Origin: Escherichia coli
Lineage (GTDB): Bacteria; Pseudomonadota; Gammaproteobacteria; Enterobacterales; Enterobacteriaceae
Direction: 5' to 3' (one strand)
DNA: 64,000 nt
Assembly (NCBI RefSeq): GCF_044647545.1
Contig: NZ_CP172818.1
The position numbers and the translations under genes were made by a program. The notes below the pieces were generated by a model. It was not told the DNA's origin and made no database searches. It was given only the letters and a program-made list of their open reading frames with translations. This document shows, in pieces, positions 3,493 through 41,479 of the stretch; position 1 is the stretch's first letter; each line of letters opens with the position of its first letter.

Positions 3493-6066
3493 TTACTGGA
3501 CGGCGACAATCCGGTCTTCATTAACTTCCAGGCGAATCACTTTACCCGGAACCAATTCACCAGACAGTATTTGCTGTGCCAGCGGGTTTTCGATCTGCTG
3601 CTGAATTGCACGTTTCAGAGGACGTGCACCATAGACCGGATCGTAACCGTTCTCGCTCAGCAGTTTCAGCGCCTCGTCAGAAATGTGGATTTCATAACCA
3701 CGTTCTTCCAGACGTTTATACAGACGTTTCAACTGAATCTGCGCAATCGACGCAATGTGCTGTTCACCCAGCGGATGGAAGACCACCACTTCATCGATAC
3801 GGTTAATGAATTCCGGACGGAAGTTATGGCTTACCACACCGAGCACCAGCTCTTTCATGTGCGCATAATCCAGTTCACCGAAGCGTTCCTGAATCAAATC
3901 GGAACCGAGGTTAGAGGTCATAATGACAACCGTATTACGGAAGTCGACCGTTCTCCCCTGCCCGTCAGTCAGACGCCCATCATCCAATACCTGCAACAGA
4001 ATGTTGAAGACATCCGGATGCGCTTTTTCCACTTCATCCAGCAGGATGACGGAATACGGACGACGACGCACCGCTTCGGTCAGGTAGCCACCTTCTTCAT
4101 AACCGACATATCCCGGAGGCGCACCAACCAGACGAGACACCGAGTGTTTCTCCATAAACTCGGACATATCGATACGGACCATCGCCTCGTCGCTATCAAA
4201 CATAAAGTTCGCCAGCGCCTTACAAAGCTCAGTTTTCCCCACACCCGTTGGGCCGAGGAACAGGAATGAACCAATCGGGCGATTTGGATCCGCCAGCCCC
4301 GCACGGCTACGACGAATAGCGTTAGATACCGCATCAACCGCTTCGTTCTGACCAATAACGCGATGGTGCAGTTCTTGCTCCATACGCAGCAGTTTTTCGC
4401 GCTCGCTTTCCATCATGCGAGAAACCGGAATCCCCGTCCAACGCGCCAGCACTTCAGCAATTTCGGCATCGGTCACTTTATTACGCAACAGACGCATAGT
4501 TTTGCCTTCGAGCTGCGTTGCGGCTTCCAGTTGCTTTTCCAGTTCCGGGATTTTGCCGTATTGCAGTTCAGACATCCGCGCCAGGTCACCCACACGGCGA
4601 GCCTGTTCAATAGCGATTTTCGCCTGTTCCAGTTCCGCTTTAATGGTCTGCGTACCAGAAAGCGATGCTTTCTCTGCTTTCCACTCTTCTTCTAACTCGG
4701 AGTACTGACGTTCTTTGTCGCTCAGTTCTTCGTTGAGCATATCCAGACGTTTTTTACTGGCTTCATCAGACTCTTTCATTAACGCCTGTTGTTCCAGTTT
4801 GAGCTGGATGATACGGCGATCGAGTCGGTCGAGTTCTTCTGGTTTTGAGTCAATCTGCATACGAATGCTGGATGCTGCCTCATCGATCAGGTCGATGGCT
4901 TTATCTGGCAGCTGGCGGTCAGCAATGTAGCGATGAGACAACGTCGCCGCTGCAACAATTGCCGGGTCAGTAATTTGCACATGGTGGTGCAGCTCGTAAC
5001 GTTCTTTCAGGCCACGTAGAATCGCAATGGTATCTTCAACAGAAGGCTCGGCAACAAACACTTTCTGGAAACGACGTTCCAGCGCAGCATCTTTTTCGAT
5101 GTACTGGCGATATTCGTCAAGCGTCGTGGCACCTACGCAGTGCAATTCACCACGCGCCAGCGCCGGTTTCAGCATGTTTCCGGCGTCCATTGCGCCATCG
5201 GCTTTACCCGCGCCGACCATGGTATGTAATTCGTCGATAAACAGGATGACGTTGCCTTCCTGTTTGGCAAGATCGTTAAGTACGCCTTTTAAACGTTCTT
5301 CAAACTCACCGCGATATTTCGCCCCAGCCACCAGCGCGCCCATATCCAGCGCCAGTACGCGGCGGCCTTTCAACCCTTCGGGCACTTCGCCGTTGATAAT
5401 ACGCTGCGCCAGACCTTCAACGATGGCAGTCTTACCGACGCCTGGTTCACCAATCAGTACCGGGTTATTTTTAGTACGACGTTGCAGCACCTGAATGGTA
5501 CGGCGAATTTCTTCATCACGACCAATCACCGGATCGAGTTTACCCTGTTCGGCTCGTTCGGTAAGGTCGATGGTATATTTTTTCAAAGCCTGACGTTGGT
5601 CTTCAGCACCTTGATCGTTCACGCTTTCACCTCCACGCATTTGTTCAATCGCTTGAGTAATGTTGGCGGTGGTCGCCCCTGCTGCTTTCAGGATGTCGGC
5701 CAGCGTGCCGCGAGACTCAAGTGCCGCCAGAACGAACAGTTCTGACGAGATAAAGTTATCACCACGTTTTTGCGCCAGCTTGTCGCAAAGATTAAGAACG
5801 CGCACCAGATCCTGTGATGGCTGGACATCACCACCAGTACCTTCAACCTGCGGTAAACGATTTAATGCCTGATTGATATCTGTGCGCAACTGGCCAGCAT
5901 TTATGCCAGCGGATGTTAATAAAGGACTAACCGAACCCCCTTCCTGATTCAGCAGGGCGCTCATTAAATGAAGTGGTTCGATGAATTGGTTGTCGTGCCC
6001 GAGTGCAAGTGATTGGGCATCGGCAAGAGCAAGCTGGAATTTATTAGTAAGACGATCCAGACGCAT
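3493..6066 (-). CDS. clpB: ClpB disaggregase chaperone (AAA+ Hsp100), 857 aa
   Basis: ORF 3493-6078; translation begins [18 protein letters not shown] at the second Met; two Walker A sites ([16 protein letters not shown]). Confidence 0.97.
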
Positions 6067-6103
6067 AACTCCTCCCATAACGGATCAAAGTTGCTACTGG
6101 AGA

Positions 6104-6134
6104 TTAAATGAGGTCATCCCTCAATTATTCAAGG
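6104..6134 (-). promoter_or_regulatory. sigma-32 heat-shock promoter of clpB
   Basis: Minus-strand reading CTTGAA - 14 nt - CCTCATTTA resembles the sigma-32 -35 CTTGAA and -10 CCCCATNT consensus. Confidence 0.55.
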
Positions 6135-6195
6135 TTATTGACCAGATTAATGTGAAAAGAAAATCACGCGTACCGGATCGTCTTGATTCTTTAGG

Positions 6196-6927
6196 TTATA
6201 TCAGCCAAATGAAACTTGCCATACGACCGGTGGTCTTGTCGCGACGATAAGAGAAGAAAGTCTCATTTTCCGTATATGTACAACGGTCGCCGCCGAAAAT
6301 TTGTTCAACACCAACGCTCGCCAGACGCTGCCGGGCAAGCTGATAAATGTCCGCCAGATACTTATCACCATGCTGAATGAAAGCTGTACTCGCTTCGGCG
6401 TCTACTGCCATAAACGCCTCGCGAACCTCCGCCCCCACTTCAAACGCGCGTGGACCAATTGCCGGCCCTAACCAGGCGAGAATATTTTCTGGATTATCAG
6501 CAAAACAGGAAACTGTCTCTTCCAGCACGCCTGCGCACAGTCCACGCCAGCCAGCATGAGCGGCGGCGACTTCCGTTCCCGCTCGATTGCAAAACAGCAC
6601 AGGGAGGCAGTCGGCAGTCATCACTGCGCAAACCGTGCCGGGCGTATTGCTATAAGAGGCATCTGCTCGTTTTGAGGCATAAGGTTCGCCAGTAAGCTTA
6701 AGCACATCTTTGCCGTGTACCTGCTCAAGCCAGACCGGTTTAGAAGGCAAATTGCCCGCAGCAAAAAGTCGCTTGCGATTCTCCTCAACGTGATCCGGGT
6801 TATCGCCACAATGGGCACCGAGGTTGAGCGAGTCATACGGGGGCAAGCTCACGCCGCCGATACGAGTAGAGCTACAGGCCGCAACACCTTTTGGCAGCGG
6901 CCACTGCGGGACAATCAGCTTACTCAT
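6196..6927 (-). CDS. yfiH: YfiH/PgeF family purine nucleoside phosphorylase / polyphenol oxidase-like protein, 243 aa
   Basis: ORF track; conserved position between clpB and rluD; overlaps rluD stop by 4 nt. Confidence 0.9.
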   Translation of the reverse strand: MSKLIVPQWPLPKGVAACSSTRIGGVSLPPYDSLNLGAHCGDNPDHVEENRKRLFAAGNLPSKPVWLEQVHGKDVLKLTGEPYASKRADASYSNTPGTVCAVMTADCLPVLFCNRAGTEVAAAHAGWRGLCAGVLEETVSCFADNPENILAWLGPAIGPRAFEVGAEVREAFMAVDAEASTAFIQHGDKYLADIYQLARQRLASVGVEQIFGGDRCTYTENETFFSYRRDKTTGRMASFIWLI

Positions 6928-7904
6928 AACCAGTCCACTTCATCTTTATGCTCTTCGAAATCGGCGCGCATCACCTCAATCAGCTCCACCATATCTTGTG
7001 GAATAGGCGCATGCCATTCCATTTCGATACCGGAGATCGGGTGATAAAGACGCAGCATGGTTGCATGAAGCGCCTGGCGGTCAAATTTACGCAGCGTGGA
7101 GATAAACGCTTCCGAAGCACCTTTTGGCGGACGCGGACGGCCACCATAAACCGGATCGCCCACCAGCGGATGAGTGATATGGGCCATATGCACGCGGATC
7201 TGGTGCGTACGTCCAGTTTCCAGACGCAACCGCAGACGCGTGTGCACACGGAAGTGTTCCATGATGCGATAGTGAGTCACCGCTGGTTTGCCCATCGGAT
7301 GCACCGCCATATGGGTACGTTTGGTCGGGTGGCGGCTGATTGGTTCATCTACTGTACCGCCAGCGGTCATATGACCAATTGCCACCGCTTCATACTCACG
7401 AGTCATTTCACGCCTTTGCAAAGATTCGACTAAACGCGTCTGAGCCGGAACGGTTTTTGCCACAACCATCAGGCCAGTGGTGTCTTTATCCAGACGATGG
7501 ACGATGCCTGCACGCGGTACATCGGCAATGGGCGGATAATAATGAAGCAATGCATTCAGTACCGTGCCATCCGGGTTACCCGCGCCAGGATGTACCACCA
7601 GGTCGCGCGGTTTATTAATGACGATGATATCGTCATCTTCATAGACGATATCCAGCGGGATATCCTGCGGTTCAAAACGCGCTTCTTCTTCAATCTCAGC
7701 GTTGATGGCCACCTGCTCGCCACCCAATACTTTTTCTTTCGGCTTATCACAAACTTTGCCGTTAACCAGCACGCGCTGGTCGAGGATCCATTCTTTTATC
7801 CGCGAACGTGAATAATCCGGGAACATTTCGGCCAAAGCCTGATCTAAGCGTTGACCGAGTTGGTTTTCGGACACCGTTGCAGTGAGCTGTACTCGTTGTG
7901 CCAT
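6924..7904 (-). CDS. rluD: 23S rRNA pseudouridine synthase RluD, 326 aa
   Basis: ORF track; translation MAQRVQLTATVSE...; S4 domain plus pseudouridine synthase core (HRLDKDTTGL motif). Confidence 0.95.
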   Translation of the reverse strand: MAQRVQLTATVSENQLGQRLDQALAEMFPDYSRSRIKEWILDQRVLVNGKVCDKPKEKVLGGEQVAINAEIEEEARFEPQDIPLDIVYEDDDIIVINKPRDLVVHPGAGNPDGTVLNALLHYYPPIADVPRAGIVHRLDKDTTGLMVVAKTVPAQTRLVESLQRREMTREYEAVAIGHMTAGGTVDEPISRHPTKRTHMAVHPMGKPAVTHYRIMEHFRVHTRLRLRLETGRTHQIRVHMAHITHPLVGDPVYGGRPRPPKGASEAFISTLRKFDRQALHATMLRLYHPISGIEMEWHAPIPQDMVELIEVMRADFEEHKDEVDWL

Positions 7905-8038
7905 ATATACTGCTTCTTCGTTTATCGTTGGGGTTTTACGGCTTTGCCGTTTAATATAGTGTGCTATTGTAGCTGGTCTTAACCGGGAGCAGGAACAGAG
8001 AATCTCCCGTATTACATTTTGAGGAAAGTCAAAACGTC

Positions 8039-8776
8039 ATGACGCGCATGAAATATCTGGTGGCAGCCGCCACACTAAGCCTGTTTTTGGCGGGTTGCTC
8101 GGGGTCAAAGGAAGAAGTACCTGATAATCCGCCAAATGAAATTTACGCGACTGCACAACAAAAGCTGCAGGACGGTAACTGGAGACAGGCAATAACGCAA
8201 CTGGAAGCGTTAGATAATCGCTATCCGTTTGGTCCGTATTCGCAGCAGGTGCAGCTGGATCTCATCTACGCCTACTATAAAAACGCCGATCTGCCGTTAG
8301 CACAGGCTGCCATCGATCGTTTTATTCGCCTCAACCCGACCCATCCGAATATCGATTATGTCATGTACATGCGTGGCCTGACCAATATGGCGCTGGATGA
8401 CAGTGCGCTGCAAGGGTTCTTTGGCGTTGACCGTAGCGATCGCGATCCTCAACATGCTCGAGCTGCGTTTAGTGACTTTTCCAAACTGGTGCGCGGCTAT
8501 CCAAACAGCCAATACACCACTGATGCAACCAAACGTCTGGTGTTCCTGAAAGATCGTCTGGCGAAATATGAATACTCCGTTGCAGAGTACTACACCGAAC
8601 GTGGCGCATGGGTTGCCGTCGTCAACCGCGTCGAAGGCATGCTGCGTGACTACCCGGATACCCAAGCTACGCGTGATGCGCTGCCGCTGATGGAAAATGC
8701 TTACCGCCAGATGCAGATGAACGCTCAGGCTGAAAAAGTCGCAAAAATTATTGCCGCTAACAGCAGCAACACTTAA
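8039..8776 (+). CDS. bamD: Outer membrane assembly lipoprotein BamD, 245 aa
   Basis: ORF track; lipoprotein signal peptide [22 protein letters not shown]; divergent from rluD. Confidence 0.95.
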
Positions 8777-8792
8777 CAGGTGTTATAAACGC

Positions 8793-8826
8793 AAAACGGC
8801 AGCCCTTGAGCTGCCGTTTTTTTATT
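8793..8826 (+). terminator. Rho-independent terminator after bamD
   Basis: AAACGGCAGCCCTTGAGCTGCCGTTTTTTTATT hairpin plus T-tract. Confidence 0.8.
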
Positions 8827-8992
8827 CTGTTAGTTGTGAAACTGAAGCGATTTAGTCACTATCGATCTCATCAAATATGGCTCGCTTTGAGATATTCCTC
8901 AAGTAAAAAAACACCTCTTCCTGCGATTTCTCACAAAAAAGATTCGTTGACAAAAAGTGACAAAATTATGAGATTTCCATCACACATTTTGA

Positions 8993-9388
<396 letters not shown>

Positions 9389-11972: not shown

Positions 11973-13043
11973 TTAAGCCACGCGAGCCGTCAGCTGCCCG
12001 TTCAGATCCTGATGAATTTCACGCAGCAAGGCATCGGTCATTTCCCAACTAATGCAGGCATCGGTGACGGATACACCGTATTTCATTTCACTGCGCGGTT
12101 GCTCGGAAGACTGATTGCCCTCGTGGATATTACTTTCAATCATCAGACCAATAATTGAGCGATTGCCATCTTTGATTTGAGCAACCACGGATTCTGCCAC
12201 CGCAGGCTGACGGCGATAATCTTTATTGGAATTACCGTGGCTGCAATCTACCATCAGAGACGGGCGCAGTCCCGCCTGTTCCATCTCTTTTTCACATTGC
12301 GCAACATCCGCAGGGCTATAGTTCGGCGCTTTACCACCGCGCAGGATCACATGCCCGTCCGGATTCCCCTGAGTTTGTAGCAACGCCACCTGCCCTGCCT
12401 GGTTAATGCCAACAAAACGGTGCGGCTGGGCGGCGGCACGCATAGCGTTAATAGCCGTTGCAAGGCTGCCGTCGGTGCCGTTTTTAAAACCAACCGGCAT
12501 GGAAAGCCCGGAGGCCATTTCACGGTGTGTTTGCGATTCCGTTGTACGAGCACCAATTGCTGACCAGCTAAACAGATCGCCCAGGTATTGCGGGCTATTC
12601 GGATCTAACGCTTCCGTCGCCAGTGGCAGTCCCATATTCACCAGCTCAAGCAGCAATTTACGCGCGATCTGCAGCCCGGCTTCTACATCAAAAGAGCCAT
12701 CCATATGGGGATCGTTAATCAACCCTTTCCAACCGACAGTGGTACGGGGTTTTTCAAAATAGACGCGCATTACCAGATAGAGGCTATCGCTGACCTCTGC
12801 GGCAAGGGCTTTAAATCGACGAGCATATTCCAGAGCAGTTTCCGGATCATGAATGGAACAAGGACCACAGACTACCAACAGACGAGGATCGCGCCCGGCG
12901 ATAATATCTGAAATGGTTTTACGCGAGTCAGCAATCTGGGCTTCCTGTTGCAGGCTTAATGGAAAAGCGGCCTTCAGTTGTTCCGGAGTCATTAAAACTT
13001 GTTCGTCGGTAATATGTACGTTATTCAGCGCGTCTTTTTGCAT
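11973..13043 (-). CDS. aroF: DAHP synthase, Tyr-sensitive, 356 aa
   Basis: ORF 11973-13112; start taken at the internal Met giving [24 protein letters not shown]... Confidence 0.93.
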
Positions 13044-13189
13044 GATGGCGATCCTGTTTATGCTCGTTTGCGATAGTTGATCCTCAGCGAGGATGACGTA
13101 ACGATAACACATAAAGTAAAGTTTTCAATCCATATTTCGTACATTTTTCTTTACACAAGCAATTTATTCGCGCTTTTAACCCTTGTTTA

Positions 13190-13252: not shown

Positions 13253-13618
13253 ATGATGAAAAAGTTTATTGCCCCCTTGTTGGCTTTACTGGTTAGCGGA
13301 TGTCAGATTGATCCTTATACTCACGCGCCAACCTTGACCAGCACCGACTGGTATGATGTCGGTATGGAAGATGCGATATCGGGCAGCACCATAAAAGATG
13401 ACGATGCATTTAGCGATTCACAGGCGGATCGCGGTCTATACCTTAAAGGATATGCCGAAGGACAAAAGAAAACTTGCCAGACCGATTTTACTTATGCCCG
13501 GGGACTTTCCGGTAAAAGCTTTCCTGCCAGCTGCAACAATGTTGAAAATGCCAGCCAACTGCATGAAGTATGGCAAAAAGGGGCTGATGAAAATGCCAGC
13601 ACAATACGATTAAATTAA
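13253..13618 (+). CDS. yfiL: Lipoprotein YfiL, 121 aa
   Basis: ORF 13214-13618; start taken at ATG 13253, 6 nt after AAGGAG; lipobox LVSGC. Confidence 0.8.
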   Translation: MMKKFIAPLLALLVSGCQIDPYTHAPTLTSTDWYDVGMEDAISGSTIKDDDAFSDSQADRGLYLKGYAEGQKKTCQTDFTYARGLSGKSFPASCNNVENASQLHEVWQKGADENASTIRLN

Positions 13619-13767
13619 TTAAACCCCCACAAATAAATTAAACATGAGATTCTACTCATTGTGTTTTATTTCTCACATTGATGACGACCGCATGAAAGAA
13701 TGATATTTTAATGAGCATTCTGAAAAAATATCGATGCATTTCGAGCGAAGATGGTGAGGATCCCTGA

Positions 13768-14286
13768 ATGCGTTTTTCTCACCGACTGTTCTTACTGCTG
13801 ATTCTCCTGCTGACGGGAGCACCAATACTCGCTCAGGAACCTTCTGACGTTGCGAAAAACGTGCGTATGATGGTTTCCGGTATTGTCAGTTACACCCGCT
13901 GGCCTGCGCTATCAGGGCCACCAAAGTTATGTATCTTTTCATCTTCACATTTTAGTAACGCCCTACAAGAGAATGGCACGACATCTTTGCCTTATCTACC
14001 TGTCATCATTCACACTCAACAAGAGGCGATGATTTCAGGCTGCAATGGTTTTTATTTTGGCAACGAGTCACCGACATTCCAGATGGAATTAACCGAACAA
14101 TATCCGTCAAAGGCGTTATTATTAATTGCCGAACAAAATACCGAGTGCATTATTGGTAGCGCCTTTTGTCTAATCATCCACAATAATGACGTCAGATTTG
14201 CCGTAAACCTGGATGCCTTATCGCGTAGCGGTGTAAAGGTCAACCCGGATGTCTTAATGCTCGCACGGAAGAAAAATGATGGATAA
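13768..14286 (+). CDS. yfiR: Periplasmic repressor of diguanylate cyclase DgcN, 172 aa
   Basis: ORF track; signal peptide; stop overlaps dgcN start. Confidence 0.9.
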
Positions 14287-15502
14287 CGATAATTCTCTTC
14301 ATAAGCGCCCCACGTTTAAAAGAGCATTACGCAACATCAGCATGACCAGCATATTTATCACTATGATGCTGATCTGGCTGCTGCTTTCCGTGACGTCAGT
14401 GCTAACCCTGAAACAGTACGCGCAAAAAAACCTGGCACTGACAGCAGCAACAATGACTTACAGTCTGGAAGCAGCTGTCGTTTTTGCCGATGGCCCTGCA
14501 GCAACTGAAACACTGGCAGCGCTGGGGCAGCAAGGCCAATTTTCAACTGCAGAAGTGCGTGATAAGCAGCAAAATATTCTGGCATCCTGGCATTACACCC
14601 ATAAGGAACCAGGCGATACTTTCAGCAATTTCATAAGCCACTGGCTCTTCCCTGCCCCCATCATTCAGCCGATTCGTCACAATGGTGAAACCATTGGCGA
14701 AGTACGCTTAACTGCTCGCGACAGTTCAATCAGCCATTTTATCTGGTTTTCGCTCGCTGTCCTGACCGGTTGTATTCTGCTGGCATCAGGCATCGCAATT
14801 ACCCTCACCCGCCATTTGCACAATGGCCTGGTTGAAGCGTTAAAAAACATCACCGATGTCGTACATGATGTGCGTTCCAACCGCAATTTTTCCCGACGAG
14901 TTTCGGAAGAACGTATCGCAGAGTTTCACCGCTTCGCTCTCGACTTCAACAGTCTGCTGGATGAAATGGAAGAGTGGCAGCTTCGTTTACAGGCCAAAAA
15001 TGCGCAGCTTCTACGTACCGCGCTACATGACCCATTAACCGGGCTGGCTAACCGCGCAGCGTTTCGTAGCGGCATCAACACGTTGATGAACAATTCCGAT
15101 GCCCGAAAAACGTCGGCGTTACTATTTCTTGATGGCGATAATTTCAAATATATCAATGATACCTGGGGTCATGCGACGGGCGATAGAGTCTTGATTGAAA
15201 TAGCAAAACGGTTAACTGAATTTGGCGGGCTGCGACATAAAGCATACCGACTGGGCGGCGATGAATTCGCTATGGTGCTCTATGATGTACAATCGGAATC
15301 TGAAGTGCAGCAGATATGCTCAGCACTGACACAAATTTTTAATCTCCCGTTTGATCTTCATAATGGCCATCAGACTACCATGACATTAAGCATTGGTTAC
15401 GCGATGACCATTGAGCACGCCTCTGCGGAAAATTTACAAGAGCTTGCCGATCACAATATGTATCAGGCCAAACACCAGCGTGCCGAAAAGCTGGTGAGAT
15501 AA
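14276..15502 (+). CDS. dgcN: Diguanylate cyclase DgcN (YfiN), membrane-bound GGDEF protein, 408 aa
   Basis: ORF track; two TM segments and a GGDEF domain with the active-site variant RLGGDEF. Confidence 0.93.
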
Positions 15503-15517
15503 CAAGGATATATCGAT

Positions 15518-16000
15518 ATGATAAAGCACCTGGTAGCACCCCTGATTTTCACCTCACTAATACTGACTGGCTGCCAGTCCCCTCAGGGAAAGTTTACTCC
15601 TGAGCAAGTCGCCGCTATGCAATCTTATGGATTTACTGAATCCGCCGGCGACTGGTCGCTGGGCTTATCAGATGCCATTCTGTTCGCAAAAAATGACTAC
15701 AAATTGCTCCCGGAAAGCCAGCAACAGATCCAAACCATGGCAGCCAAATTGGCCTCGACAGGGCTAACGCATGCCCGTATGGATGGACACACCGACAACT
15801 ATGGTGAAGACAGTTACAACGAAGCCTTATCATTGAAACGGGCGAATGTCGTGGCCGATGCATGGGCTATGGGTGGACAAATTCCGCGCAGCAATCTCAC
15901 CACACAAGGTTTAGGAAAAAAATATCCCATAGCCAGTAACAAGACCGCCCAGGGCCGCGCCGAGAACCGCCGCGTCGCAGTGGTGATTACAACCCCTTAA
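15518..16000 (+). CDS. yfiB: OmpA-family outer membrane lipoprotein YfiB, 160 aa
   Basis: ORF track; lipobox LTGC; OmpA-like C-terminal motif NRRV. Confidence 0.93.
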   Translation: MIKHLVAPLIFTSLILTGCQSPQGKFTPEQVAAMQSYGFTESAGDWSLGLSDAILFAKNDYKLLPESQQQIQTMAAKLASTGLTHARMDGHTDNYGEDSYNEALSLKRANVVADAWAMGGQIPRSNLTTQGLGKKYPIASNKTAQGRAENRRVAVVITTP

Positions 16001-16076
16001 AACACGAGCAAACAGATAAAAAAAGGGCCAGCCAATTGGCCAGCCCTTCTTAACAGGATGTCGCTTAAGCGAAATC

Positions 16077-16427
<351 letters not shown>

Positions 16428-20533: not shown

Positions 20534-20577
20534 ACCCAGAAAAGGAGTTTCCCCTGGAACACATTTCTACTACTACG

Positions 20578-21840
20578 TTGATCATTATTCTGATCATCAT
20601 GGTGGTCATTTCAGCCTATTTTTCCGGGTCCGAAACCGGAATGATGACCCTCAACCGCTATCGTCTGCGACATATGGCGAAACAGGGTAATCGCTCGGCC
20701 AAACGCGTCGAAAAATTGCTGCGTAAGCCAGACCGCCTGATTAGCCTGGTGTTAATCGGCAATAACCTGGTCAATATTCTTGCCTCCGCGCTCGGCACTA
20801 TTGTTGGGATGCGTTTGTACGGCGATGCGGGCGTGGCAATTGCGACTGGTGTGCTGACTTTTGTCGTACTGGTTTTTGCTGAGGTATTGCCGAAAACCAT
20901 TGCCGCGCTGTACCCGGAAAAAGTCGCTTATCCGAGTAGTTTTCTGCTGGCTCCGCTGCAAATTTTGATGATGCCGCTGGTCTGGTTGCTGAATGCTATT
21001 ACCCGCATGTTAATGCGCATGATGGGCATCAAAACCGATATCGTGGTTAGCGGCTCTTTGAGCAAAGAAGAGTTGCGCACCATCGTGCACGAATCGCGCT
21101 CACAAATTTCCCGTCGCAATCAGGATATGCTGCTGTCGGTGCTCGATCTGGAAAAAATGACCGTTGATGACATCATGGTGCCGCGCAGTGAAATTATCGG
21201 TATTGATATCAACGATGACTGGAAATCGATTCTGCGCCAACTCTCCCACTCACCTCACGGGCGCATCGTGCTCTACCGTGATTCGCTGGACGACGCCATC
21301 AGTATGCTGCGTGTGCGTGAAGCCTGGCGACTCATGTCGGAGAAAAAAGAGTTCACCAAAGAAACCATGCTACGCGCCGCGGACGAGATCTATTTTGTCC
21401 CGGAAGGTACGCCGCTCAGCACGCAGTTGGTGAAGTTTCAGCGCAACAAAAAGAAAGTCGGCCTGGTCGTCAACGAGTATGGAGACATTCAGGGGCTGGT
21501 GACGGTTGAAGATATTCTGGAAGAGATTGTCGGCGATTTCACTACCTCGATGTCGCCAACACTTGCCGAAGAGGTCACGCCGCAAAACGACGGTTCGGTG
21601 ATTATCGATGGCACCGCCAACGTGCGAGAAATCAACAAAGCCTTTAACTGGCATCTACCTGAAGACGATGCCCGCACGGTTAATGGCGTCATTCTTGAAG
21701 CTCTGGAAGAGATCCCTGTCGCTGGCACCCGCGTGCGTATTGGCGAGTACGATATCGATATTCTCGACGTACAGGATAATATGATTAAGCAGGTAAAAGT
21801 TTTTCCTGTGAAACCGCTGCGCGAGAGTGTGGCGGAGTAA
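20578..21840 (+). CDS. yfjD: CNNM/CorC-family membrane protein with CBS and transporter-associated domains (YfjD), about 420 aa
   Basis: ORF track (TTG start at 20578; true start uncertain); N-terminal TM region followed by a cytoplasmic domain. Confidence 0.85.
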   Translation: MIIILIIMVVISAYFSGSETGMMTLNRYRLRHMAKQGNRSAKRVEKLLRKPDRLISLVLIGNNLVNILASALGTIVGMRLYGDAGVAIATGVLTFVVLVFAEVLPKTIAALYPEKVAYPSSFLLAPLQILMMPLVWLLNAITRMLMRMMGIKTDIVVSGSLSKEELRTIVHESRSQISRRNQDMLLSVLDLEKMTVDDIMVPRSEIIGIDINDDWKSILRQLSHSPHGRIVLYRDSLDDAISMLRVREAWRLMSEKKEFTKETMLRAADEIYFVPEGTPLSTQLVKFQRNKKKVGLVVNEYGDIQGLVTVEDILEEIVGDFTTSMSPTLAEEVTPQNDGSVIIDGTANVREINKAFNWHLPEDDARTVNGVILEALEEIPVAGTRVRIGEYDIDILDVQDNMIKQVKVFPVKPLRESVAE

Positions 21841-21880
21841 AAAAACGGCCCGGCATTCGCATGCTGGGCCGTGATTTATT
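21841..21880. terminator. Bidirectional terminator between yfjD and grpE
   Basis: ACGGCCCGGCAT-TCGC-ATGCTGGGCCGT hairpin flanked by A-run and T-rich tail. Confidence 0.75.
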
Positions 21881-27371: not shown

Positions 27372-27734
27372 GGGGCTGATTCTGGATTCGACGGGATTTG
27401 CGAAACCCAAGGTGCATGCCGAGGGGCGGTTGGCCTCGTAAAAAGCCGCAAAAAATAGTCGCAAACGACGAAAACTACGCTTTAGCAGCTTAATAACCTG
27501 CTTAGAGCCCTCTCTCCCTAGCCTCCGCTCTTAGGACGGGGATCAAGAGAGGTCAAACCCAAAAGAGATCGCGTGGAAGCCCTGCCTGGGGTTGAAGCGT
27601 TAAAACTTAATCAGGCTAGTTTGTTAGTGGCGTGTCCGTCCGCAGCTGGCAAGCGAATGTAAAGACTGACTAAGCATGTAGTACCGAGGACGTAGGAATT
27701 TCGGACGCGGGTTCAACTCCCGCCAGCTCCACCA
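27372..27734 (+). ncRNA. ssrA: tmRNA (transfer-messenger RNA)
   Basis: Begins GGGGCTGATTCTGGATTCGACGGG, contains the tag-reading frame GCAAACGACGAAAACTACGCTTTAGCAGCTTAA (ANDENYALAA-stop), ends GGTTCAACTCCCGCCAGCTCCACCA. Confidence 0.97.
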
Positions 27735-27735: not shown

Positions 27736-27937
27736 AATTCTCCATCGGTGATTACCAGAGTCATCCGATGAAGTCCTAAGAGCCCGCACGGCGCAAGCCC
27801 TGCGGGCTTTTTTGTGCCCTCAATTTGTCCCGCGAAGTCCGAAGAGAACTAATTAAATCCGAACCTTTTAGGCCCATTGATAGGCCCAACGAAAAGCTCT
27901 ATTGTTTACGTTGGGCCTAAACGCAGGGAGACTCCCC

Positions 27938-29179
27938 ATGGCAAGAAAAACCAAGCCGTTAACTGATACGGAAATCAAAGCCGCCAAACCTAAAGATGCC
28001 GATTACCAGCTTTATGACGGTGACGGGCTTACTCTGTTAATCAAGTCCAGTGGCAGTAAGCTTTGGCAATTCCGTTACTATCGGCCTTTGACCAAGCAGC
28101 GAACCAAACAGAGCTTCGGTGCCTATCCTGCCGTCTCGCTTTCTGATGCACGTAAACTCAGAGCCGAATCTAAAGTTTTATTGGCGAAAGACATTGATCC
28201 TCAGGAACATCAGAAAGAACAGGTGAGGAATTCTCAAGAGGCCAAAACCAATACCTTCTTGTTAGTTGCCGAGCGTTGGTGGAATGTGAAGAAAACCAGC
28301 GTAACAGAGGACTATGCCGACGATATCTGGCGCTCGCTTGAGAGAGATATTTTCCCGGCAATCGGTGATATCAGTATCACTGAGATTAAGGCTCATACTC
28401 TGGTTAAAGCAGTTCAGCCGGTTCAGGCCAGAGGTGCATTAGAGACTGTTCGCCGCCTTTGTCAGCGTATTAACGAAGTCATGATTTATGCGCAGAACAC
28501 AGGCCTGATTGATGCTGTTCCTAGTGTAAATATCGGAAAAGCTTTCGAGAAACCGCAAAAGAAAAACATGCCAAGCATCCGGCCGGATCAACTTCCGCAG
28601 CTAATGCACACCATGCGTACGGCAAGTATCAGCATGTCCACAAGATGCCTGTTCATGTGGCAACTTCTAACCATCACCCGCCCTGCCGAAGCTGCTGAGG
28701 CTCGATGGGATGAGATCGATTTCAATGCTAGCGAATGGAAAATTCCTGCAGCTCGAATGAAGATGAACCGGGACCATACGGTTCCACTATCTGATGGGGC
28801 TCTTGCTATTCTGGAAATGATGAAGCCTCTCAGTGGTGGCCGAGAATTTATCTTTCCTAGCCGTATCAAGCCCAACCAACCAATGAATAGCCAAACAGTG
28901 AATGCAGCACTCAAGCGTGCTGGCTTAGGAGGTGTACTTGTTTCACACGGCTTGCGTTCTATCGCCAGTACGGCACTCAATGAGGAAGGATTTCCACCTG
29001 ATGTCATTGAAGCAGCGCTTGCTCATGTAGACAAAAATGAGGTGCGTCGCGCTTATAACCGCAGTGATTATCTTGAGCAACGTCGTCCGATGATGCAATG
29101 GTGGGCTGATCTCGTAAAAGCAGCAGATAGTGGTAGCATCGTTTTAACTCATTTGAGCAAAATTCGTCTTGTCGGATAA
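27938..29179 (+). CDS. intA: P4-type tyrosine integrase, 413 aa
   Basis: ORF 27902-29179; start taken at MARKTKPLTDTEIKAAKP; C-terminal catalytic region (HGLRSIAST...AHVDKNEVRRAYNRSDYLEQRR). Confidence 0.93.
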   Translation: MARKTKPLTDTEIKAAKPKDADYQLYDGDGLTLLIKSSGSKLWQFRYYRPLTKQRTKQSFGAYPAVSLSDARKLRAESKVLLAKDIDPQEHQKEQVRNSQEAKTNTFLLVAERWWNVKKTSVTEDYADDIWRSLERDIFPAIGDISITEIKAHTLVKAVQPVQARGALETVRRLCQRINEVMIYAQNTGLIDAVPSVNIGKAFEKPQKKNMPSIRPDQLPQLMHTMRTASISMSTRCLFMWQLLTITRPAEAAEARWDEIDFNASEWKIPAARMKMNRDHTVPLSDGALAILEMMKPLSGGREFIFPSRIKPNQPMNSQTVNAALKRAGLGGVLVSHGLRSIASTALNEEGFPPDVIEAALAHVDKNEVRRAYNRSDYLEQRRPMMQWWADLVKAADSGSIVLTHLSKIRLVG

Positions 29180-29422: not shown

Positions 29423-30379
29423 TTATTTACTTCTTTTTTTTCTACGAACAGCGCTATCGAAAGCTTGTTTTACATCTTCATTTTTTAAAGACCATTGATT
29501 TAAAATAGTATCAACCAAAGCATCTTGACTCATTGTTGCTACACGATATTTTTTATTTTGATTATTTATCTCAAACTCTGACATTTGAATAAAATCCCAT
29601 AGCGGTTCGATAAGTTCATTAACTGCTACAACCTTATTTTTCCACCCATCATTCGGAACAGAGTCATTAATTAGCTCAACCAACTTCAGTTGAATGATAT
29701 GGTACACTTCCGCTTTGCTTTTGCCACCCTTCTTTCCTGCACTCCGCCTGACTTCTGATAATTTTTTTTGATTACAAACAGAGATGTTAAACCAAGTCAT
29801 ACCTATGCACTTATCAAATAACTCCGCAGCCCGATGAAATGCTTTAAAGGCAACGTTTTCATTTTCAGACATGATAGATTTTCCCCAGAAAAAAGAGATT
29901 GAGGCGAACATAAGGTGTGCCTTGAAAATGTCATTAATGGAAAATGGCTCGATAACAAGAGGTAAAAACGTTTCCTTGGTAAGGTTTGAACTTAGATTTT
30001 TCCAGCATTCTTGAGCTGGATCATATAATTCAGTGTATTCTTCCTTTATCTCCAGTTGCCCATTCACTGTATGGTGCCTTGTTTCCCATGGTACATCGCA
30101 GGAATATAACCTCACACGAGTACCTATTTTCTCAGAGCTCCAGAATTGCTCTCGCATTCTGCCTAGCTCAATCCGTATTTCCGGATGATCTTCCTCTAGA
30201 ACATCAGTATCCACCGCCCATTCGCATTCGGACATGTGATAGGCGAGATCACGTCGTTTTCTACAAATTTGTTCATAAAAATCATTCAGAGAAATCATAA
30301 AACCACCATAAATCAATGTATTAGAGGTTGTAAAAATTGTATTTTTGGTACATGGGTTTTTTGCCTTAAAGATACCCAT
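29423..30379 (-). CDS. yfjH: Hypothetical protein YfjH, 318 aa, AT-rich, no recognisable motif
   Basis: ORF 29423-30499; start taken at the Met (MGIFKAK...) that avoids overlap with alpA; divergent from alpA. Confidence 0.8.
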   Translation of the reverse strand: MGIFKAKNPCTKNTIFTTSNTLIYGGFMISLNDFYEQICRKRRDLAYHMSECEWAVDTDVLEEDHPEIRIELGRMREQFWSSEKIGTRVRLYSCDVPWETRHHTVNGQLEIKEEYTELYDPAQECWKNLSSNLTKETFLPLVIEPFSINDIFKAHLMFASISFFWGKSIMSENENVAFKAFHRAAELFDKCIGMTWFNISVCNQKKLSEVRRSAGKKGGKSKAEVYHIIQLKLVELINDSVPNDGWKNKVVAVNELIEPLWDFIQMSEFEINNQNKKYRVATMSQDALVDTILNQWSLKNEDVKQAFDSAVRRKKRSK

Positions 30380-30422
30380 TAATCTCTCTGCAACCAAAGT
30401 GAACCAATGAGAGGCAACAAGA

Positions 30423-30635
30423 ATGAACAATCGATCGGCCGTTAGAATACTACGGTTACCAGCGGTTATCCAAAAAACAGGTATGGCACGGGCCACCATC
30501 TATGACTGGTTGAACCCCAAATCACCACGATACGATGCCACCTTTCCCAAAAAGCGAATGCTCGGCGTGAAATCTGTCGGATGGATTGAGGCCGAGATTG
30601 ATGAGTGGTTATCACAACGCTGTAAACTTATTTGA
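30423..30635 (+). CDS. alpA: AlpA-family prophage transcriptional regulator (excisionase-like HTH), 70 aa
   Basis: ORF track; translation MNNRSAVRILRLPAVIQKTGMARATIYDWLN... Confidence 0.92.
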   Translation: MNNRSAVRILRLPAVIQKTGMARATIYDWLNPKSPRYDATFPKKRMLGVKSVGWIEAEIDEWLSQRCKLI

Positions 30636-30763: not shown

Positions 30764-32173
30764 ATGTTCAATGGTCGTCCTTTCCCTGTAGATGCATTTC
30801 CTAAAATTATCAGGAATGCAATTTATGAAGTGGAACAGCATACGCAGGCCCCTCAAGGTTTGATTGCTGCTTCTGCTCTTGGGGTAATTTCTCTTGCCTG
30901 TCAGAACCGGATTGATGTTTGCCGATTGAATAATCTACGTGGCCCGGTATCACTTTTCTTAATGACTCTGGCTGAATCAGGTGAACGTAAGAGTACGGTT
31001 GATAAACTGCTGATGAAGCCATTATATCAACTGGAAGAGGATTTATTTGAAAAATACACCCACGATCTTACCGCATGGAGAAATGATGAAGCAATTTTTA
31101 ATATTGAAAAAAAAGCACTGATGTCAAAACTTAAATCAGATATTCGACGTAACAAAGATCACTTGGCAACAAATGAAAGACTTAAAGAACTACTTACGAC
31201 AAACCCGAAAGCTCCAGTGAGATTCAAATTTTTATTTAACGATGCCACACCTGCAGCTATTAAAGCTCATCTCTGTGGGCACTGGCGATCAGTCGGCATC
31301 ATGTCTGATGAAGCTGGGATCATTTTTAATGGTTACACACTTAACGAGCTGCCGTTTATCAATAAGATGTGGGATGGTTCAATATTTACGGTGGAAAGGA
31401 AAAACGAGCCCGAGAAATTAATTAGAGATGCAAGAATAACACTGTCGCTGATGGTCCAGCCTAATGTTTTTAAGGGTTATATCGACAGGAAAGGAGATAT
31501 GGCAAAGGGGATTGGATTTTTTGCACGGTGCCTCATGTGCCAGCCTGCTTCAACACAAGGTAACAGAAAAATTTCCAACCCAATTTTTTCAAATGAACAT
31601 TTGCCGGTATTTCACCAACGTCTTATGGAAATTGTTAATGAGAGCATCATTAAAATTAATGAAAATAATCGCATCTGCCTCCGATTCTCTGCAGAAGCAG
31701 AAAGACATTGGATCGAATTCTACAACCAGGTCGAGTCAGAAATGAGAATGATTGGCCTTCTTTATGATTTTAAGGATTATGCTTCTAAAATGGCGGAGAA
31801 CATGGCGAGGCTTGCTGCCTTACTTCATTACTTCAGCGGTGATGGAGGCGATATATCTGTTACCGCAGTAAAAGCAGCAGTGGAGATAGTGGCTTGGTAT
31901 ATTGAAGAATACATCCGCTTGTTCTCTAAAAAAGAAGAGTTTTCTTTAGATGTTTCAGAAGCAGATGAGCTTTATTGTTGGATAAAAGATTACTGCACGC
32001 AAAAATTTTCTTCCTGCATCAAGAAAAATATTATCTTACAATTTGGGCCAAATAAATTTAGAAATCGTGACAAGGCAAATGAATTAATTAGAATCTTAAT
32101 TTCACAAAACAAAATATTTATATCTTCATGGGGTAAAACAAAAATAATAAACATAACTCATTGTGTTTTTTGA
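30764..32173 (+). CDS. yfjI: YfjI, DUF3987-type protein (primase-associated family in integrative elements), 469 aa
   Basis: ORF track; length and order match the K-12 island; family assignment by recollection. Confidence 0.85.
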   Translation: MFNGRPFPVDAFPKIIRNAIYEVEQHTQAPQGLIAASALGVISLACQNRIDVCRLNNLRGPVSLFLMTLAESGERKSTVDKLLMKPLYQLEEDLFEKYTHDLTAWRNDEAIFNIEKKALMSKLKSDIRRNKDHLATNERLKELLTTNPKAPVRFKFLFNDATPAAIKAHLCGHWRSVGIMSDEAGIIFNGYTLNELPFINKMWDGSIFTVERKNEPEKLIRDARITLSLMVQPNVFKGYIDRKGDMAKGIGFFARCLMCQPASTQGNRKISNPIFSNEHLPVFHQRLMEIVNESIIKINENNRICLRFSAEAERHWIEFYNQVESEMRMIGLLYDFKDYASKMAENMARLAALLHYFSGDGGDISVTAVKAAVEIVAWYIEEYIRLFSKKEEFSLDVSEADELYCWIKDYCTQKFSSCIKKNIILQFGPNKFRNRDKANELIRILISQNKIFISSWGKTKIINITHCVF

Positions 32174-32325: not shown

Positions 32326-32952
32326 ATGACATACGATAGTGAATTCGGATCACATGTATCCCTATATCGGGATAGAATCAAACAGGTTATTGATGACTCC
32401 CTAAACGAACATCTTAACTCAATGATTCTACGTGTTGATCTGCATGACCCAATTGATACAGAAAATATGGATAACCCATTCTTTCAACCCAGGGTTGACT
32501 CTGGTGCTATATCTCGCTTTACCAGTGCGTTAAAAGCAAAGCTTAAACATGATAAGCATATTAAAACTCAACGGAAAGACTGGCCTGATAGTCGACATTC
32601 CACTTTACGTTACGCATGGGTCAGAGAATATACCAAAAATAGAAAGCGGCATTACCATTTGATACTGTGTTTCAATCAGGATGCTTATTATCATTTAGGT
32701 GATTACGACTTAAACCGTAACACGTTACGTACAATGATAACGACAGCTTGGTACAGTGCACTTGGCATCCCTATAGATAGCTCGGGGAAGTTAGTTAATT
32801 ACCCGCCAAATGGCAAATACCTTCTCAATCGTAAAAGGGACAACTTTGAGCAGACTTATAGCGATTTGATGAATAGGGTGGATTACATGACCAAAGTAAG
32901 GACTAAAATAGTCGGTGACGGAGACCGTAATTTCGGCTGCAGTCGCGGGTAA
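32326..32952 (+). CDS. yfjJ: YfjJ, YagK/YfjJ family (inovirus Gp2-like replication-initiator family), 208 aa
   Basis: ORF track; family assignment by recollection. Confidence 0.8.
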   Translation: MTYDSEFGSHVSLYRDRIKQVIDDSLNEHLNSMILRVDLHDPIDTENMDNPFFQPRVDSGAISRFTSALKAKLKHDKHIKTQRKDWPDSRHSTLRYAWVREYTKNRKRHYHLILCFNQDAYYHLGDYDLNRNTLRTMITTAWYSALGIPIDSSGKLVNYPPNGKYLLNRKRDNFEQTYSDLMNRVDYMTKVRTKIVGDGDRNFGCSRG

Positions 32953-33129: not shown

Positions 33130-35319
33130 TCAATGTCGTCTAATACCGAGCGCGCGCCTGATAAACATCTGATCAACGTACCCAATCGATCTACTCCAAA
33201 TGTCCTGAGTATCCCGAAGATACTGGCTCAACTCATCCACATCAGCCTCGTCGGAAAATTCCAGCAAGTCTACCAGTCGGTGTAACGTCTGAATGGGAAT
33301 GCCAATCTCTTCTAAGGCATTGACACCTGGTGGTAGATGGAAACTTTCGAACGCCAATTTGACATGTGTGTAATCGACTTTGCTGCGTATACCACGCTTT
33401 ACAGCGTGGTGTTTAACTACATCCTCCATCAAGCTGAGCACCTTAGGTAGGGTATAGCCGAAGGTATTGGTTATGAGCTTCAAATCATTGTTGAGGGCAA
33501 TGGAAAGAGTACGTTTCTCCCCTTCAGAAATCCACTGTCGTGCATAATCGATCTGATTTTTCAGATATTCCGAATAACTTTCAGCACTTAAATAGCCGGC
33601 AAGTTTTGCGATCATGACATCCGTAGGCTTAACAGGGACCCCATTGCGACTGAACGTATGGGGAACCAGTCTGGCAATGATCTTTGCAAAGGTCTTGAGG
33701 AAGTTTGTCGCGGGAGTCCAGTGAAACACTAACGAGGAAAATTCGTTATCGTCCATCATCTCGAACATGCTTTGCAGCATTTCGAACTGCTCGACACGGA
33801 AGTACGAATGCTTCTTCACAAGGTCGATGGAAACACGGTCGTTTATGAAAACCTCATCAAAGCGATCCTGTGAAAACTCGGACAAGTGGTCTGGTTGAAC
33901 GCTGGCTAACAGGTTGATTGGGGTATCAATGCCCTGAATACCGAGCGGAATATCCACCTCTTGATTGAGATTGTCTTCCGGGATTTCCTCCAGGCAAAAG
34001 ATTTTGCCGACGAAGTGAACGCCCATGCGCCCGGCGCGACCTTTGATGTTCCCATGGGTGAATTTGTCAATGCTGCGAGTTCCATCGCGGTTGTCGTAGA
34101 TCACAACGTTCTTAGCGATAGTGTTGACTCCTTCAATGATCGTGGAGGTGCAGAGCAAAAAGCGCAGTTTTCCAGCATTGAATTGGTCGGCAGTGTATTG
34201 CTGCAGTGCCCTCGGTAGCGCGCCAAAATGCAAGCCAATACCGTTTCTAAGGGCGACTGTGTAATCCCAGTCGGCATCGAACTCTTCGCTGACCCAGTCG
34301 ACATGGGGATTCTCAGTCGGAGTGCCATGCCCAAGCCTGATCAGCTCGCGCGCCACCAGGCCCGCAACAGTTGGTGACTTGCAATAAATGATCGTTGCGT
34401 CGACACATGCGTGCGCGATTTCCCCCAGCGCTTTGAGCTTGGCTTTGTCGTCATTCGCTTTGATGCCGAACGTCTTAACATCTAGCGCGACTGTATTGAA
34501 GTCGGTAGAAACGAAAGTATGCGGATATCCAAGTTTTTCGAGACCGCGAATGCTGTTAACGAACGGTCCCGTCAGGTAAAACTGCCTGGAGACCTTAAGC
34601 AGTTTGCTTAACGCAATGTTGAGCTCGATGACTCGTTCGTCTTGATGATCAATGTCCCCGCTTTTCAGTTGTCGGAACGCCAACTTGTAAAACTCGTCAA
34701 TGACGAAGAGGTCAATGTCGACGATGTCGTCACGCTCGTTCACTCGCTCCTGAGTTAACACATAAACAGCCTGATCGGAATGGCACACTTGGGAACTGTG
34801 GTGGATGATCTGATATCGGTCACCGAATCGCTCTTGCAGTCGGCGACGGGTTTCGTCGGCAAGAGCCACGGTTGGAACAACCAGAACAAGCCGTTTCAAA
34901 GTTCCCATGCCGAGCAATGAATCGACGATTGCACTTTTGCCCATGCTTGTAGGTGCACTCAGCACCACGTTTTGACCAGACTTGAGCAGATCGAATATGT
35001 GGAACTGCATTGAGTGGAAAACATAACCATCCGAGAATGGCGTCCGGTATAGCTCAAGCACCCTCAGGTCATCCGGTGTCAGGCTGGTGAACTCCTTTTT
35101 GAGATACGGGAACAAACCTGATTTTCTCACCATATTTTTCAAAATTGTGGTGTGCTCGGAAAACCGCTCGCGCGAATCGAGAGCTCGCACGATCAAGTCC
35201 CGTCCCAAGTCATACGAAACAGGGTTAGACAACAGCTTGTTAACCGCAAACAGATAATTGAACGATGAGAAGTCCTCACCCTGCAGGCTATGTTTCGCCT
35301 GTTCATAGATCTCTGTCAT
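33130..35319 (-). CDS. yfjK: SF2 DEAD/DEAH-box helicase YfjK, 729 aa
   Basis: ORF track; Walker A APTSMGKS, motif II VIDEFY, motif VI GRAGRMG visible in the translation; start overlaps yfjL stop (ATGA). Confidence 0.92.
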   Translation of the reverse strand: MTEIYEQAKHSLQGEDFSSFNYLFAVNKLLSNPVSYDLGRDLIVRALDSRERFSEHTTILKNMVRKSGLFPYLKKEFTSLTPDDLRVLELYRTPFSDGYVFHSMQFHIFDLLKSGQNVVLSAPTSMGKSAIVDSLLGMGTLKRLVLVVPTVALADETRRRLQERFGDRYQIIHHSSQVCHSDQAVYVLTQERVNERDDIVDIDLFVIDEFYKLAFRQLKSGDIDHQDERVIELNIALSKLLKVSRQFYLTGPFVNSIRGLEKLGYPHTFVSTDFNTVALDVKTFGIKANDDKAKLKALGEIAHACVDATIIYCKSPTVAGLVARELIRLGHGTPTENPHVDWVSEEFDADWDYTVALRNGIGLHFGALPRALQQYTADQFNAGKLRFLLCTSTIIEGVNTIAKNVVIYDNRDGTRSIDKFTHGNIKGRAGRMGVHFVGKIFCLEEIPEDNLNQEVDIPLGIQGIDTPINLLASVQPDHLSEFSQDRFDEVFINDRVSIDLVKKHSYFRVEQFEMLQSMFEMMDDNEFSSLVFHWTPATNFLKTFAKIIARLVPHTFSRNGVPVKPTDVMIAKLAGYLSAESYSEYLKNQIDYARQWISEGEKRTLSIALNNDLKLITNTFGYTLPKVLSLMEDVVKHHAVKRGIRSKVDYTHVKLAFESFHLPPGVNALEEIGIPIQTLHRLVDLLEFSDEADVDELSQYLRDTQDIWSRSIGYVDQMFIRRALGIRRH

Positions 35320-36932
35320 ACGACCTCTCTCACCTTCTCATCAACTAATTGGGTTAACCGCTCAAGACTCGGGGCTGGATAAATGAATACGTGGATGCAA
35401 AGATTCGCAAACGGCGAATCCTCGATGAGGTCAGCCGCGAATTTTTCGAACAGCACCGCTGTTTCTTTCTCCAGGTCATCCTCGAACCCCGGCGTTTCAG
35501 GCTCGGTTAGTAGATTAGAGTCGTAGCCCACGAACAGAACAAACGTGAAACGATCGAGGTGAGCATCGAAAGGTTGGCTGCCATCAAGAATTTCGTCAAT
35601 GTCGTGGCGAAGCAGGTAGTTATCGTCTTTAATGTCGAGGATTTTTTTGCGCGCGGTATCGATGCAATCCGAAATGTCCTCGTACAACTGATCCCGTATC
35701 TCCGGCAATCTGACGGCAATGTTAATATCAGTCACCAACTCGCTGAAGCCAATCCAAAGCTGATCACCTTCTGGATCGCGGCGAACGATATGCACGTTTT
35801 CAAGAATTTTTTCGGCCCCTGCTTTTTCCACGTATAGCATGCAAGGAATAGGCTGGCTTTCGTGGTGCTGCCGGATCGTTGCGTGCAACAGCACTCGACC
35901 CAAAAATTCGCTGACGTCATGGAGCGATTTGAAGACGGAATTCTTTAGTCGTTCTCGCTTTTCAATGAATGTCAGTTTATGAATATCAGACATTTCTTTT
36001 GGTCGGAGAAAAACCTCATCCAACCATTGACAGACGTTATCCGCGATGTGCTTGTAGCGGTATTTCTTAAGTGAGTACTGCTGATGTAGAACCTGGCCTT
36101 TACGCTTAGCGCAGACCGAAGCCATAGGCGCTCTAAATGGCGTAAGGATGTGGGGTAAGTCCCGTTTGACGTAGATTTTGCGGCCTGACCGAGATTGGTC
36201 ATCTTCGACACGCTGCTTGAACCACTCAAGTAGGTCTGGTCGTAAGTAGGACTTGTCATCAGCACTGTGAATGCGTCGAGAATGCTCGCCCTTGCGCGTC
36301 ACAGTATCAAGGATGCGGCACCAAATGTCTTCGGCGACGGTTTCGGAACTGAGAATGACCCCATGTAGATCTTGGGAGGCCAGCCGTATGTTCTTGATCC
36401 CTAGAAGTTCCAGTTCGCGCAGGGATGAAAACACTTCCCATGTAGCCGCATCGATCCAATCTGAAACGCTTATACCTGAGTCTGTTAAAAAATTGTCTGT
36501 GCGTTTGTTGAGGTCATCGATGAGTTCCTGTCGACCTGGCTTATCTAGTCGGGCGTTTGGGCTGATCGTCAAGTACTCAAGGGTTTTGTTGACCTTTTCC
36601 TCTGTGACGATGGAGTACCTACGTCCAAGGGACAGGTCAGACTCACACTGCATTGATTTGTGCAAAATTGAACTGCAGGGGATCGTCTTTTTATCAGCAC
36701 CTTTTGAATTCTGAACGATGTCCGAAATGTTCCAACGTGTTTTGCCGGTGCTTTTTACCTGAACGAAGTCGATGTATCCATCAGATACAATGTCGATATC
36801 GTCTGTGACCTCGCAGCGCACACTGCGGATAGTCTTGTCACGAAGCATTCGGGTGACATGGTAAGCGGCTACGCAGTCCTGAAATAAGAAACCGTGCTTG
36901 GCGGCTACTCCGCCTGAATCGTTCGACTCCAT
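35316..36932 (-). CDS. yfjL: YfjL, 538 aa, putative nuclease-like N-terminal domain plus large C-terminal domain of unknown function
   Basis: ORF track; N-terminal GFLFQD...EVTDDIDIV...DFVQVKS resembles a PD-(D/E)xK/QxK core; translationally coupled to yfjK. Confidence 0.88.
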   Translation of the reverse strand: MESNDSGGVAAKHGFLFQDCVAAYHVTRMLRDKTIRSVRCEVTDDIDIVSDGYIDFVQVKSTGKTRWNISDIVQNSKGADKKTIPCSSILHKSMQCESDLSLGRRYSIVTEEKVNKTLEYLTISPNARLDKPGRQELIDDLNKRTDNFLTDSGISVSDWIDAATWEVFSSLRELELLGIKNIRLASQDLHGVILSSETVAEDIWCRILDTVTRKGEHSRRIHSADDKSYLRPDLLEWFKQRVEDDQSRSGRKIYVKRDLPHILTPFRAPMASVCAKRKGQVLHQQYSLKKYRYKHIADNVCQWLDEVFLRPKEMSDIHKLTFIEKRERLKNSVFKSLHDVSEFLGRVLLHATIRQHHESQPIPCMLYVEKAGAEKILENVHIVRRDPEGDQLWIGFSELVTDINIAVRLPEIRDQLYEDISDCIDTARKKILDIKDDNYLLRHDIDEILDGSQPFDAHLDRFTFVLFVGYDSNLLTEPETPGFEDDLEKETAVLFEKFAADLIEDSPFANLCIHVFIYPAPSLERLTQLVDEKVREVV

Positions 36933-40412: not shown

Positions 40413-40443
40413 ATTTGTTTTACCCATACTGAGGAGTCTGCTT

Positions 40444-41263: not shown

Positions 41264-41479
41264 ACGTTTCATGTTGCCACGTTGTTAATATCGGACACCA
41301 CCTGTCCGCATCGCTATGTGCTCGTGTGCCTCAATCCCCCGGTTATAGCTTTTAACCCCCGTTACATCTGGCTTTTGCAGAAATAAAAAATAGTTTCTGC
41401 GTTGTCCATACCCTGTCCGCCCCCCTCTTTAAAGTAATCACATCATTTTCAGTCAGTTAACTTTCCTGGAGAATCTCTC

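Follow-up and report, generated by a model that had tools for sequence, protein, structure and literature searches.

The yfiR-dgcN-yfiB (YfiBNR) operon in a 64-kb stretch of an Escherichia coli chromosome

The stretch of Escherichia coli DNA analysed here (64,000 nucleotides of contig NZ_CP172818.1, RefSeq assembly GCF_044647545.1), which is called the window below, almost certainly contains the intact chromosomal yfiR-dgcN-yfiB operon of the species (YfiBNR), a module that leads from envelope stress to c-di-GMP. The identities of the three genes, the domain architecture of their products, the key motifs and residues and a layout like that of K-12 were all observed in the present analysis, and no result speaks against this assignment. 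The locus itself has been described before, as a core operon of E. coli that is annotated in every reference genome, with structures of the Pseudomonas aeruginosa orthologues and with several functional papers. The window is ordinary E. coli chromosomal DNA, which runs from an rRNA operon to emrA.

Gene layout and conservation

The genes and their two junctions, as read from the ORF list and the raw sequence, are as follows.

13768-14286, plus strand: yfiR, 172 aa, start codon ATG
14276-14286, plus strand: overlap of the yfiR stop and the dgcN start, 11 nt, ATGATGGATAA
14276-15502, plus strand: dgcN (yfiN), 408 aa, start codon ATG
15503-15517, plus strand: dgcN-yfiB spacer, 15 nt, containing the yfiB Shine-Dalgarno sequence AAGGA and identical to that of K-12
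15518-16000, plus strand: yfiB, 160 aa, start codon ATG

The three genes are adjacent in the order R-N-B, all on the plus strand, and their junctions are -11 nt and +15 nt. The TAA stop codon of yfiR (14284-14286) lies within the dgcN ORF, which has a second in-frame ATG at 14279. An earlier sequence-only reading of this DNA had proposed that the end of yfiR overlaps the start of dgcN at 14276-14286 and that yfiB follows after 15 nt. Both junctions are found in the ORF list and the sequence, with dgcN ending at 15502 and the ATG of yfiB at 15518, and every coordinate given in that reading is correct to the base. The antisense and alternative-frame ORFs across the locus in the ORF list are all at most 76 aa long and lack independent support, and were taken as chance.

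The region 13600-16100 was used as a megablast query against all complete E. coli genomes. The locus is matched in 5425 of the 5426 genomes, always on the chromosome; for 5368 genomes, query coverage is 80% or more. The RefSeq annotation under the match consists of yfiL, yfiR, dgcN, yfiB and rplS. Many E. coli chromosomes, including that of a strain named ST648, are 100% identical to the window here. For one chromosome whose identity is 100% across the whole query, the RefSeq annotation agrees with the window in gene lengths, in the 11-nt overlap and in the 15-nt spacer. Since each ORF has a strong match to its family and the locus is matched in 5425 of the 5426 genomes, the arrangement is not due to chance.

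In K-12 MG1655, the genes b2603-b2605 have the same order, the same lengths (519, 1227 and 483 nt), the same overlap and the same spacer as in the window. The neighbours also agree, with aroF and yfiL upstream and the convergent rplS-trmD-rimM-rpsP genes downstream. The earlier description of the locus as a core feature is thus sustained by the genome matches, by the K-12 layout and by the literature (PMC4992967). The nucleotide identity with K-12 is 98.5% for yfiR, 97.6% for dgcN and 98.3% for yfiB, with no indel, frameshift or stop, and the 40-nt yfiR-dgcN junction differs from that of K-12 only in its last base, which lies outside the overlap. At the protein level there are four substitutions relative to K-12 in YfiR (R61H, T64N, A70G and A71T), five in DgcN (N9H, R109H, D111E, A314T and K386N) and two in YfiB (V10I and G103A).

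The three proteins and the state of the locus

The identities that the sequence-only reading assigned to yfiR, dgcN and yfiB are upheld by Pfam and NCBIfam, with scores above the curated cut-offs. For YfiR, the matches are to PF13689 (DUF4154, “YfiR/HmsC-like”; E 8.7e-31) and to the NCBIfam equivalog NF053586, “regulatory sequestration protein YfiR” (166.7 bits against a cut-off of 85). By analogy with its orthologues, YfiR is the putative periplasmic repressor of DgcN. Its N-terminus is hydrophobic at residues 3-25, followed by ILA/QE, which is consistent with a Sec signal predicted from hydrophobicity only.

YfiR aligns with the crystal structures of P. aeruginosa YfiR (phmmer, E 5e-17). The protein has four cysteines, C55, C92, C127 and C134, which align with C71, C110, C145 and C152 of P. 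aeruginosa; the latter form two structurally described disulfides (PMC4887326). The YfiR of the window keeps the two cysteine pairs tied to redox sensitivity, which would form the corresponding disulfides. In the same phmmer alignment, the pocket residues L148, L151, V158, P160 and L163 align with L166, I169, V176, P178 and L181, the hydrophobic pocket of P. aeruginosa YfiR that takes in F57 of YfiB (PMC4887326), and F133 aligns with P. aeruginosa F151. Two P. aeruginosa residues implicated in YfiN binding, E163 and Q187, are not conserved and align here with A145 and K169; consequently, the details of the YfiR-YfiN interface may differ between the species.

The sequence-only reading of the 408-aa protein as a diguanylate cyclase would have fallen had the GGDEF domain been absent. 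The domain is present at residues 249-403 (PF00990, E 2.5e-43), its GGDEF motif (residues 327-331) is intact, and the domain matches the P. aeruginosa TpbB structures 7a7e (E 8e-29) and 4iob (E 2e-21). Together with a CHASE8 domain at residues 45-146 (PF17152, E 1e-33) and a match to the YfiN equivalog NF007423 (503.7 bits against a cut-off of 325), these features identify DgcN as a predicted inner-membrane diguanylate cyclase. Two segments are strongly hydrophobic, TM1 at about residues 20-46 and TM2 at about 150-179; the CHASE8 domain is bracketed by them and would therefore be periplasmic. A cytoplasmic linker of about 70 residues (about 180-245) then leads to the GGDEF domain. The literature calls this linker region HAMP (PMC4992967). 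In residues 167-251, Pfam recognises no HAMP domain even with the limit relaxed to E ≤ 10; the single match returned for the linker at that level is a sub-threshold one to Med29, which was taken as spurious. Residues 169-236 have weak NCBIfam matches to the region that follows the membrane span in BaeS and related sensor kinases.

A motif search of the whole DgcN protein found no RxxD I-site. The position of the primary I-site, five residues before GGDEF, is occupied by GLRH (residues 318-321). K-12 YfiN also has GLRH there, and E. coli YfiN has been described as having GLRH in place of RxxD (PMC10127611), as in the window. At the position of the secondary-site residue named N280 in the same paper, DgcN in the numbering of the window has a serine (S280). 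Residues 112-313 are identical between the window and K-12, the only other sequence compared.

YfiB matches PF00691 (OmpA) at residues 55-151 (E 7.7e-18), NF007424 (349 bits against a cut-off of 155) and NF053585, “outer membrane lipoprotein YfiB” (232.5 bits against a cut-off of 128). Its lipobox is LTGC, with Cys19 as the predicted lipidated residue and Gln at +2. YfiB is therefore a predicted outer-membrane lipoprotein with a C-terminal OmpA-like domain for peptidoglycan binding. In the alignment with the P. aeruginosa YfiB structures (phmmer, E 8e-32), the OmpA-type core is conserved; F39 and W46 lie opposite F48 and W55, and L48 opposite F57. The P. aeruginosa residues F48 and W55 anchor YfiR (PMC4887326), and the YfiB of the window has a predicted N-terminal segment of the kind that clamps YfiR.

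Then, could the locus have decayed in this lineage into a cryptic or inactive diguanylate cyclase module, for example with an inactive cyclase or with a YfiR allele that no longer represses? Such a reading could draw on yfiR, where the eight nucleotide differences from K-12 comprise four synonymous and four nonsynonymous changes and where all four substitutions are clustered at residues 61-71 (window positions 13948-13980). It could also draw on the scarcity of the allele, as only 90 of the 5425 records are at least 99% identical to that of the window. However, the three ORFs are full length, free of frameshifts and stops, and no damage is seen in the GGDEF motif, in the four cysteines or the hydrophobic pocket of YfiR, or in the lipobox. 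The stretch in which the YfiR changes sit aligns poorly and with gaps to P. aeruginosa YfiR, and is therefore a variable one. In dgcN, the changes relative to K-12 are mainly synonymous (24 synonymous to 5 nonsynonymous), which indicates purifying selection, and the identical sequence is carried by many independent isolates. A pseudogene or decayed locus was rejected in view of the full-length ORFs and the intact motifs, and decay is regarded as exceedingly improbable. It is also most improbable that the clustered YfiR substitutions are an adaptive allele that shifts the repression of DgcN or the capture by YfiB; if they were, the allele would alter the set-point of biofilm formation and persistence in a minority lineage of E. 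coli. We thus return to an intact operon of the usual E. coli type.

Expression signals and the surrounding DNA

Two further features bear on the extent of the transcript.

13619-13767, plus strand: yfiL-yfiR intergenic region, 149 nt
16020-16051, both strands: GC-rich hairpin between the convergent genes yfiB and rplS, 14-pair stem (terminator scan)

The promoter of the operon presumably lies in 13619-13767. By eye, 8 of the 149 positions of this gap differ between the window and K-12. A Shine-Dalgarno sequence, GAGGA, stands 7 nt 5' of the ATG of yfiR, and a Shine-Dalgarno-like GGAAG lies inside yfiR, 4 nt 5' of the overlap with dgcN. The 11-nt overlap and the 15-nt spacer plausibly keep the repressor and the enzyme co-expressed, and we infer that yfiR and dgcN are translationally coupled through the overlap. 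The whole window was scanned against Rfam at gathering thresholds, and no RNA family was found inside 13619-16076; therefore, the operon contains no known riboswitch, leader or sRNA.

On the minus strand, the hairpin at 16020-16051 has a stem followed by TTTTTTTAT (dG -28.3 kcal/mol, z -4.2) and is a predicted canonical intrinsic terminator for the rpsP-rimM-trmD-rplS operon. On the plus strand, it is weaker (dG -17.2 kcal/mol, z -2.1) and has a poor U-tract. It may nevertheless be the stop for yfiRNB transcription, for which it is the sole candidate, and the transcripts from yfiB would then end there.

A larger transcription unit, in which yfiL joins yfiR-dgcN-yfiB in a four-gene envelope operon, is unlikely. 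The gene yfiL (13253-13618, DUF2799) is co-oriented, lies 149 nt 5' of yfiR and encodes a lipoprotein (lipobox VSGC; NF008518, 202 bits); the hairpin 3' of it is weak and AT-rich (dG -7 kcal/mol, z -1.7), and no sigma-70 consensus was found on the plus strand of the yfiL-yfiR gap, all of which would suit read-through from yfiL. The promoter scan, however, is uninformative either way, as its 6 consensus matches in the region equal the 5.9 expected from shuffled sequences. The 149-nt gap contrasts with the internal junctions of yfiRNB, -11 and +15 nt, and the yfi operon in publications consists of yfiR, yfiN and yfiB only (PMC4992967). The three-gene operon is thus the preferred reading.

Elsewhere in the window, several features were recorded in their own right. 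Upstream of the operon, the sRNA RyfD lies at 6047-6185 on the minus strand (Rfam). The window at 5900-9000 is without the two tandem copies of an IS4 transposase gene that are found between bamD and raiA in ST648 (CP008697; 6055-8786 of the reference locus), and because these copies are missing, the rRNA operon lies about 2.8 kb further into the window than in the ST648 reference locus. The mechanical ORF of aroF (11973-13112, minus strand) extends 23 codons upstream of the annotated start at 13043; a longer AroF protein was rejected as an artefact of ORF extension. At 20556-21842 and 33400-34838 of the ST648 reference locus, the annotation marks yfjD as a pseudogene (internal stop) and ypjCB as frameshifted.

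The tmRNA gene ssrA (27372-27734) is immediately followed by an island of about 22 kb, with ssrA and island together spanning window positions 27372-49900. The island varies between strains, since the ST648 reference chromosome runs directly from ssrA to ypjA and has none here. At its start lies a tyrosine integrase (27902-29179; Phage_integrase and Arm-DNA-binding domains); next come genes for a DUF3987 protein (30764-32173) and for a YagK/YfjJ-like protein (32326-32952). On the minus strand, 33130-36932 encodes a Hachiman-type pair for defence against phages, whose two genes overlap by 4 nt: HamB, a DEAD-box helicase (33130-35319; PADLOC, 731 bits), and HamA (35316-36932; PADLOC, 880 bits; Pfam Cap4_nuclease and HamA). 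On the plus strand, the gene of the RnlA toxin (RNase LS; 37697-38770) matches all four RnlA Pfam domains, and the 123-aa ORF at 38763-39134, which overlaps the end of rnlA by 8 nt, is a putative RnlB antitoxin by position only. The island also encodes a YfjP-like GTPase (39483-40352; MMR_HSR1/dynamin-like, with a weak PADLOC match to LeoBC) and a WYL-domain protein (41480-42181; PADLOC WYL, E 5e-34). The island ORFs at 29423-30499, 40442-41272 and 45095-46798 have no match in Pfam or PADLOC.

Related systems, mechanism and meaning

The P. aeruginosa YfiBNR system (YfiR, YfiN/TpbB and YfiB) has the same three families in one operon (PMC4992967) and serves as the mechanistic and structural reference. 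Its proteins are distant orthologues of those in the window, with phmmer E-values of 5e-17 for YfiR, 8e-29 for the GGDEF domain and 8e-32 for YfiB. The two systems share the YfiR cysteines and pocket, the YfiB lipobox, F48/W55 anchors and OmpA-like core, and the GGDEF domain, whereas they differ at E163 and Q187 of P. aeruginosa YfiR (here A145 and K169) and at F57 of its YfiB (here L48). Compared with P. aeruginosa, additional roles have been reported for E. coli DgcN, namely division arrest and GTP depletion (PMC4992967; PMC10127611). Two further systems are likened by description. Yersinia pestis HmsCDE is a tripartite c-di-GMP signalling system (PMC5550408), and the Pfam name “YfiR/HmsC-like” also joins the two. 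Salmonella has yfiR-yfiN and lacks yfiB (PMC4992967), in contrast to the complete set of three genes in the window.

The mechanism of YfiBNR was worked out in P. aeruginosa (PMC2837407; PMC3375315; PMC4887326) and in E. coli (PMC4992967). YfiR represses the cyclase in the periplasm, and YfiN is freed when YfiR is misfolded by reducing stress or is captured by YfiB at the outer membrane (PMC4992967). By orthology, we infer for the window that YfiR likewise represses DgcN and that YfiB or reducing stress relieves the repression. YfiR would be exported to the periplasm where, when correctly disulfide-bonded, it would bind the periplasmic domain of DgcN and hold the cyclase off. Reducing conditions would misfold YfiR and so free DgcN; as an alternative trigger, YfiB, seated in the outer membrane and anchored to peptidoglycan, would clamp YfiR away from DgcN. 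The freed DgcN would condense two molecules of GTP into c-di-GMP, and the rise in c-di-GMP would lower motility and raise cellulose production and biofilm formation. Loss of YfiR in E. coli switches on both of the latter (PMC4992967).

For E. coli, a second course would follow, in which the freed DgcN moves to the Z ring and division is blocked; YfiN has been reported to go to the Z ring after reductive and envelope stress and to arrest division (PMC4992967). As the feedback I-site is missing, DgcN might also deplete GTP and arrest growth. Such depletion has been attributed to the missing I-sites of YfiN; on gluconeogenic carbon sources growth is arrested, and cells in this state tolerate antibiotics (PMC10127611).

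The importance of the locus in the window lies in its correct annotation only: it is a typical, intact copy, and it makes no open question testable. The system to which it belongs, YfiBNR, is a studied route in E. coli and P. aeruginosa by which periplasmic redox or envelope stress leads to c-di-GMP, to biofilms, to the arrest of division and to tolerance of antibiotics.
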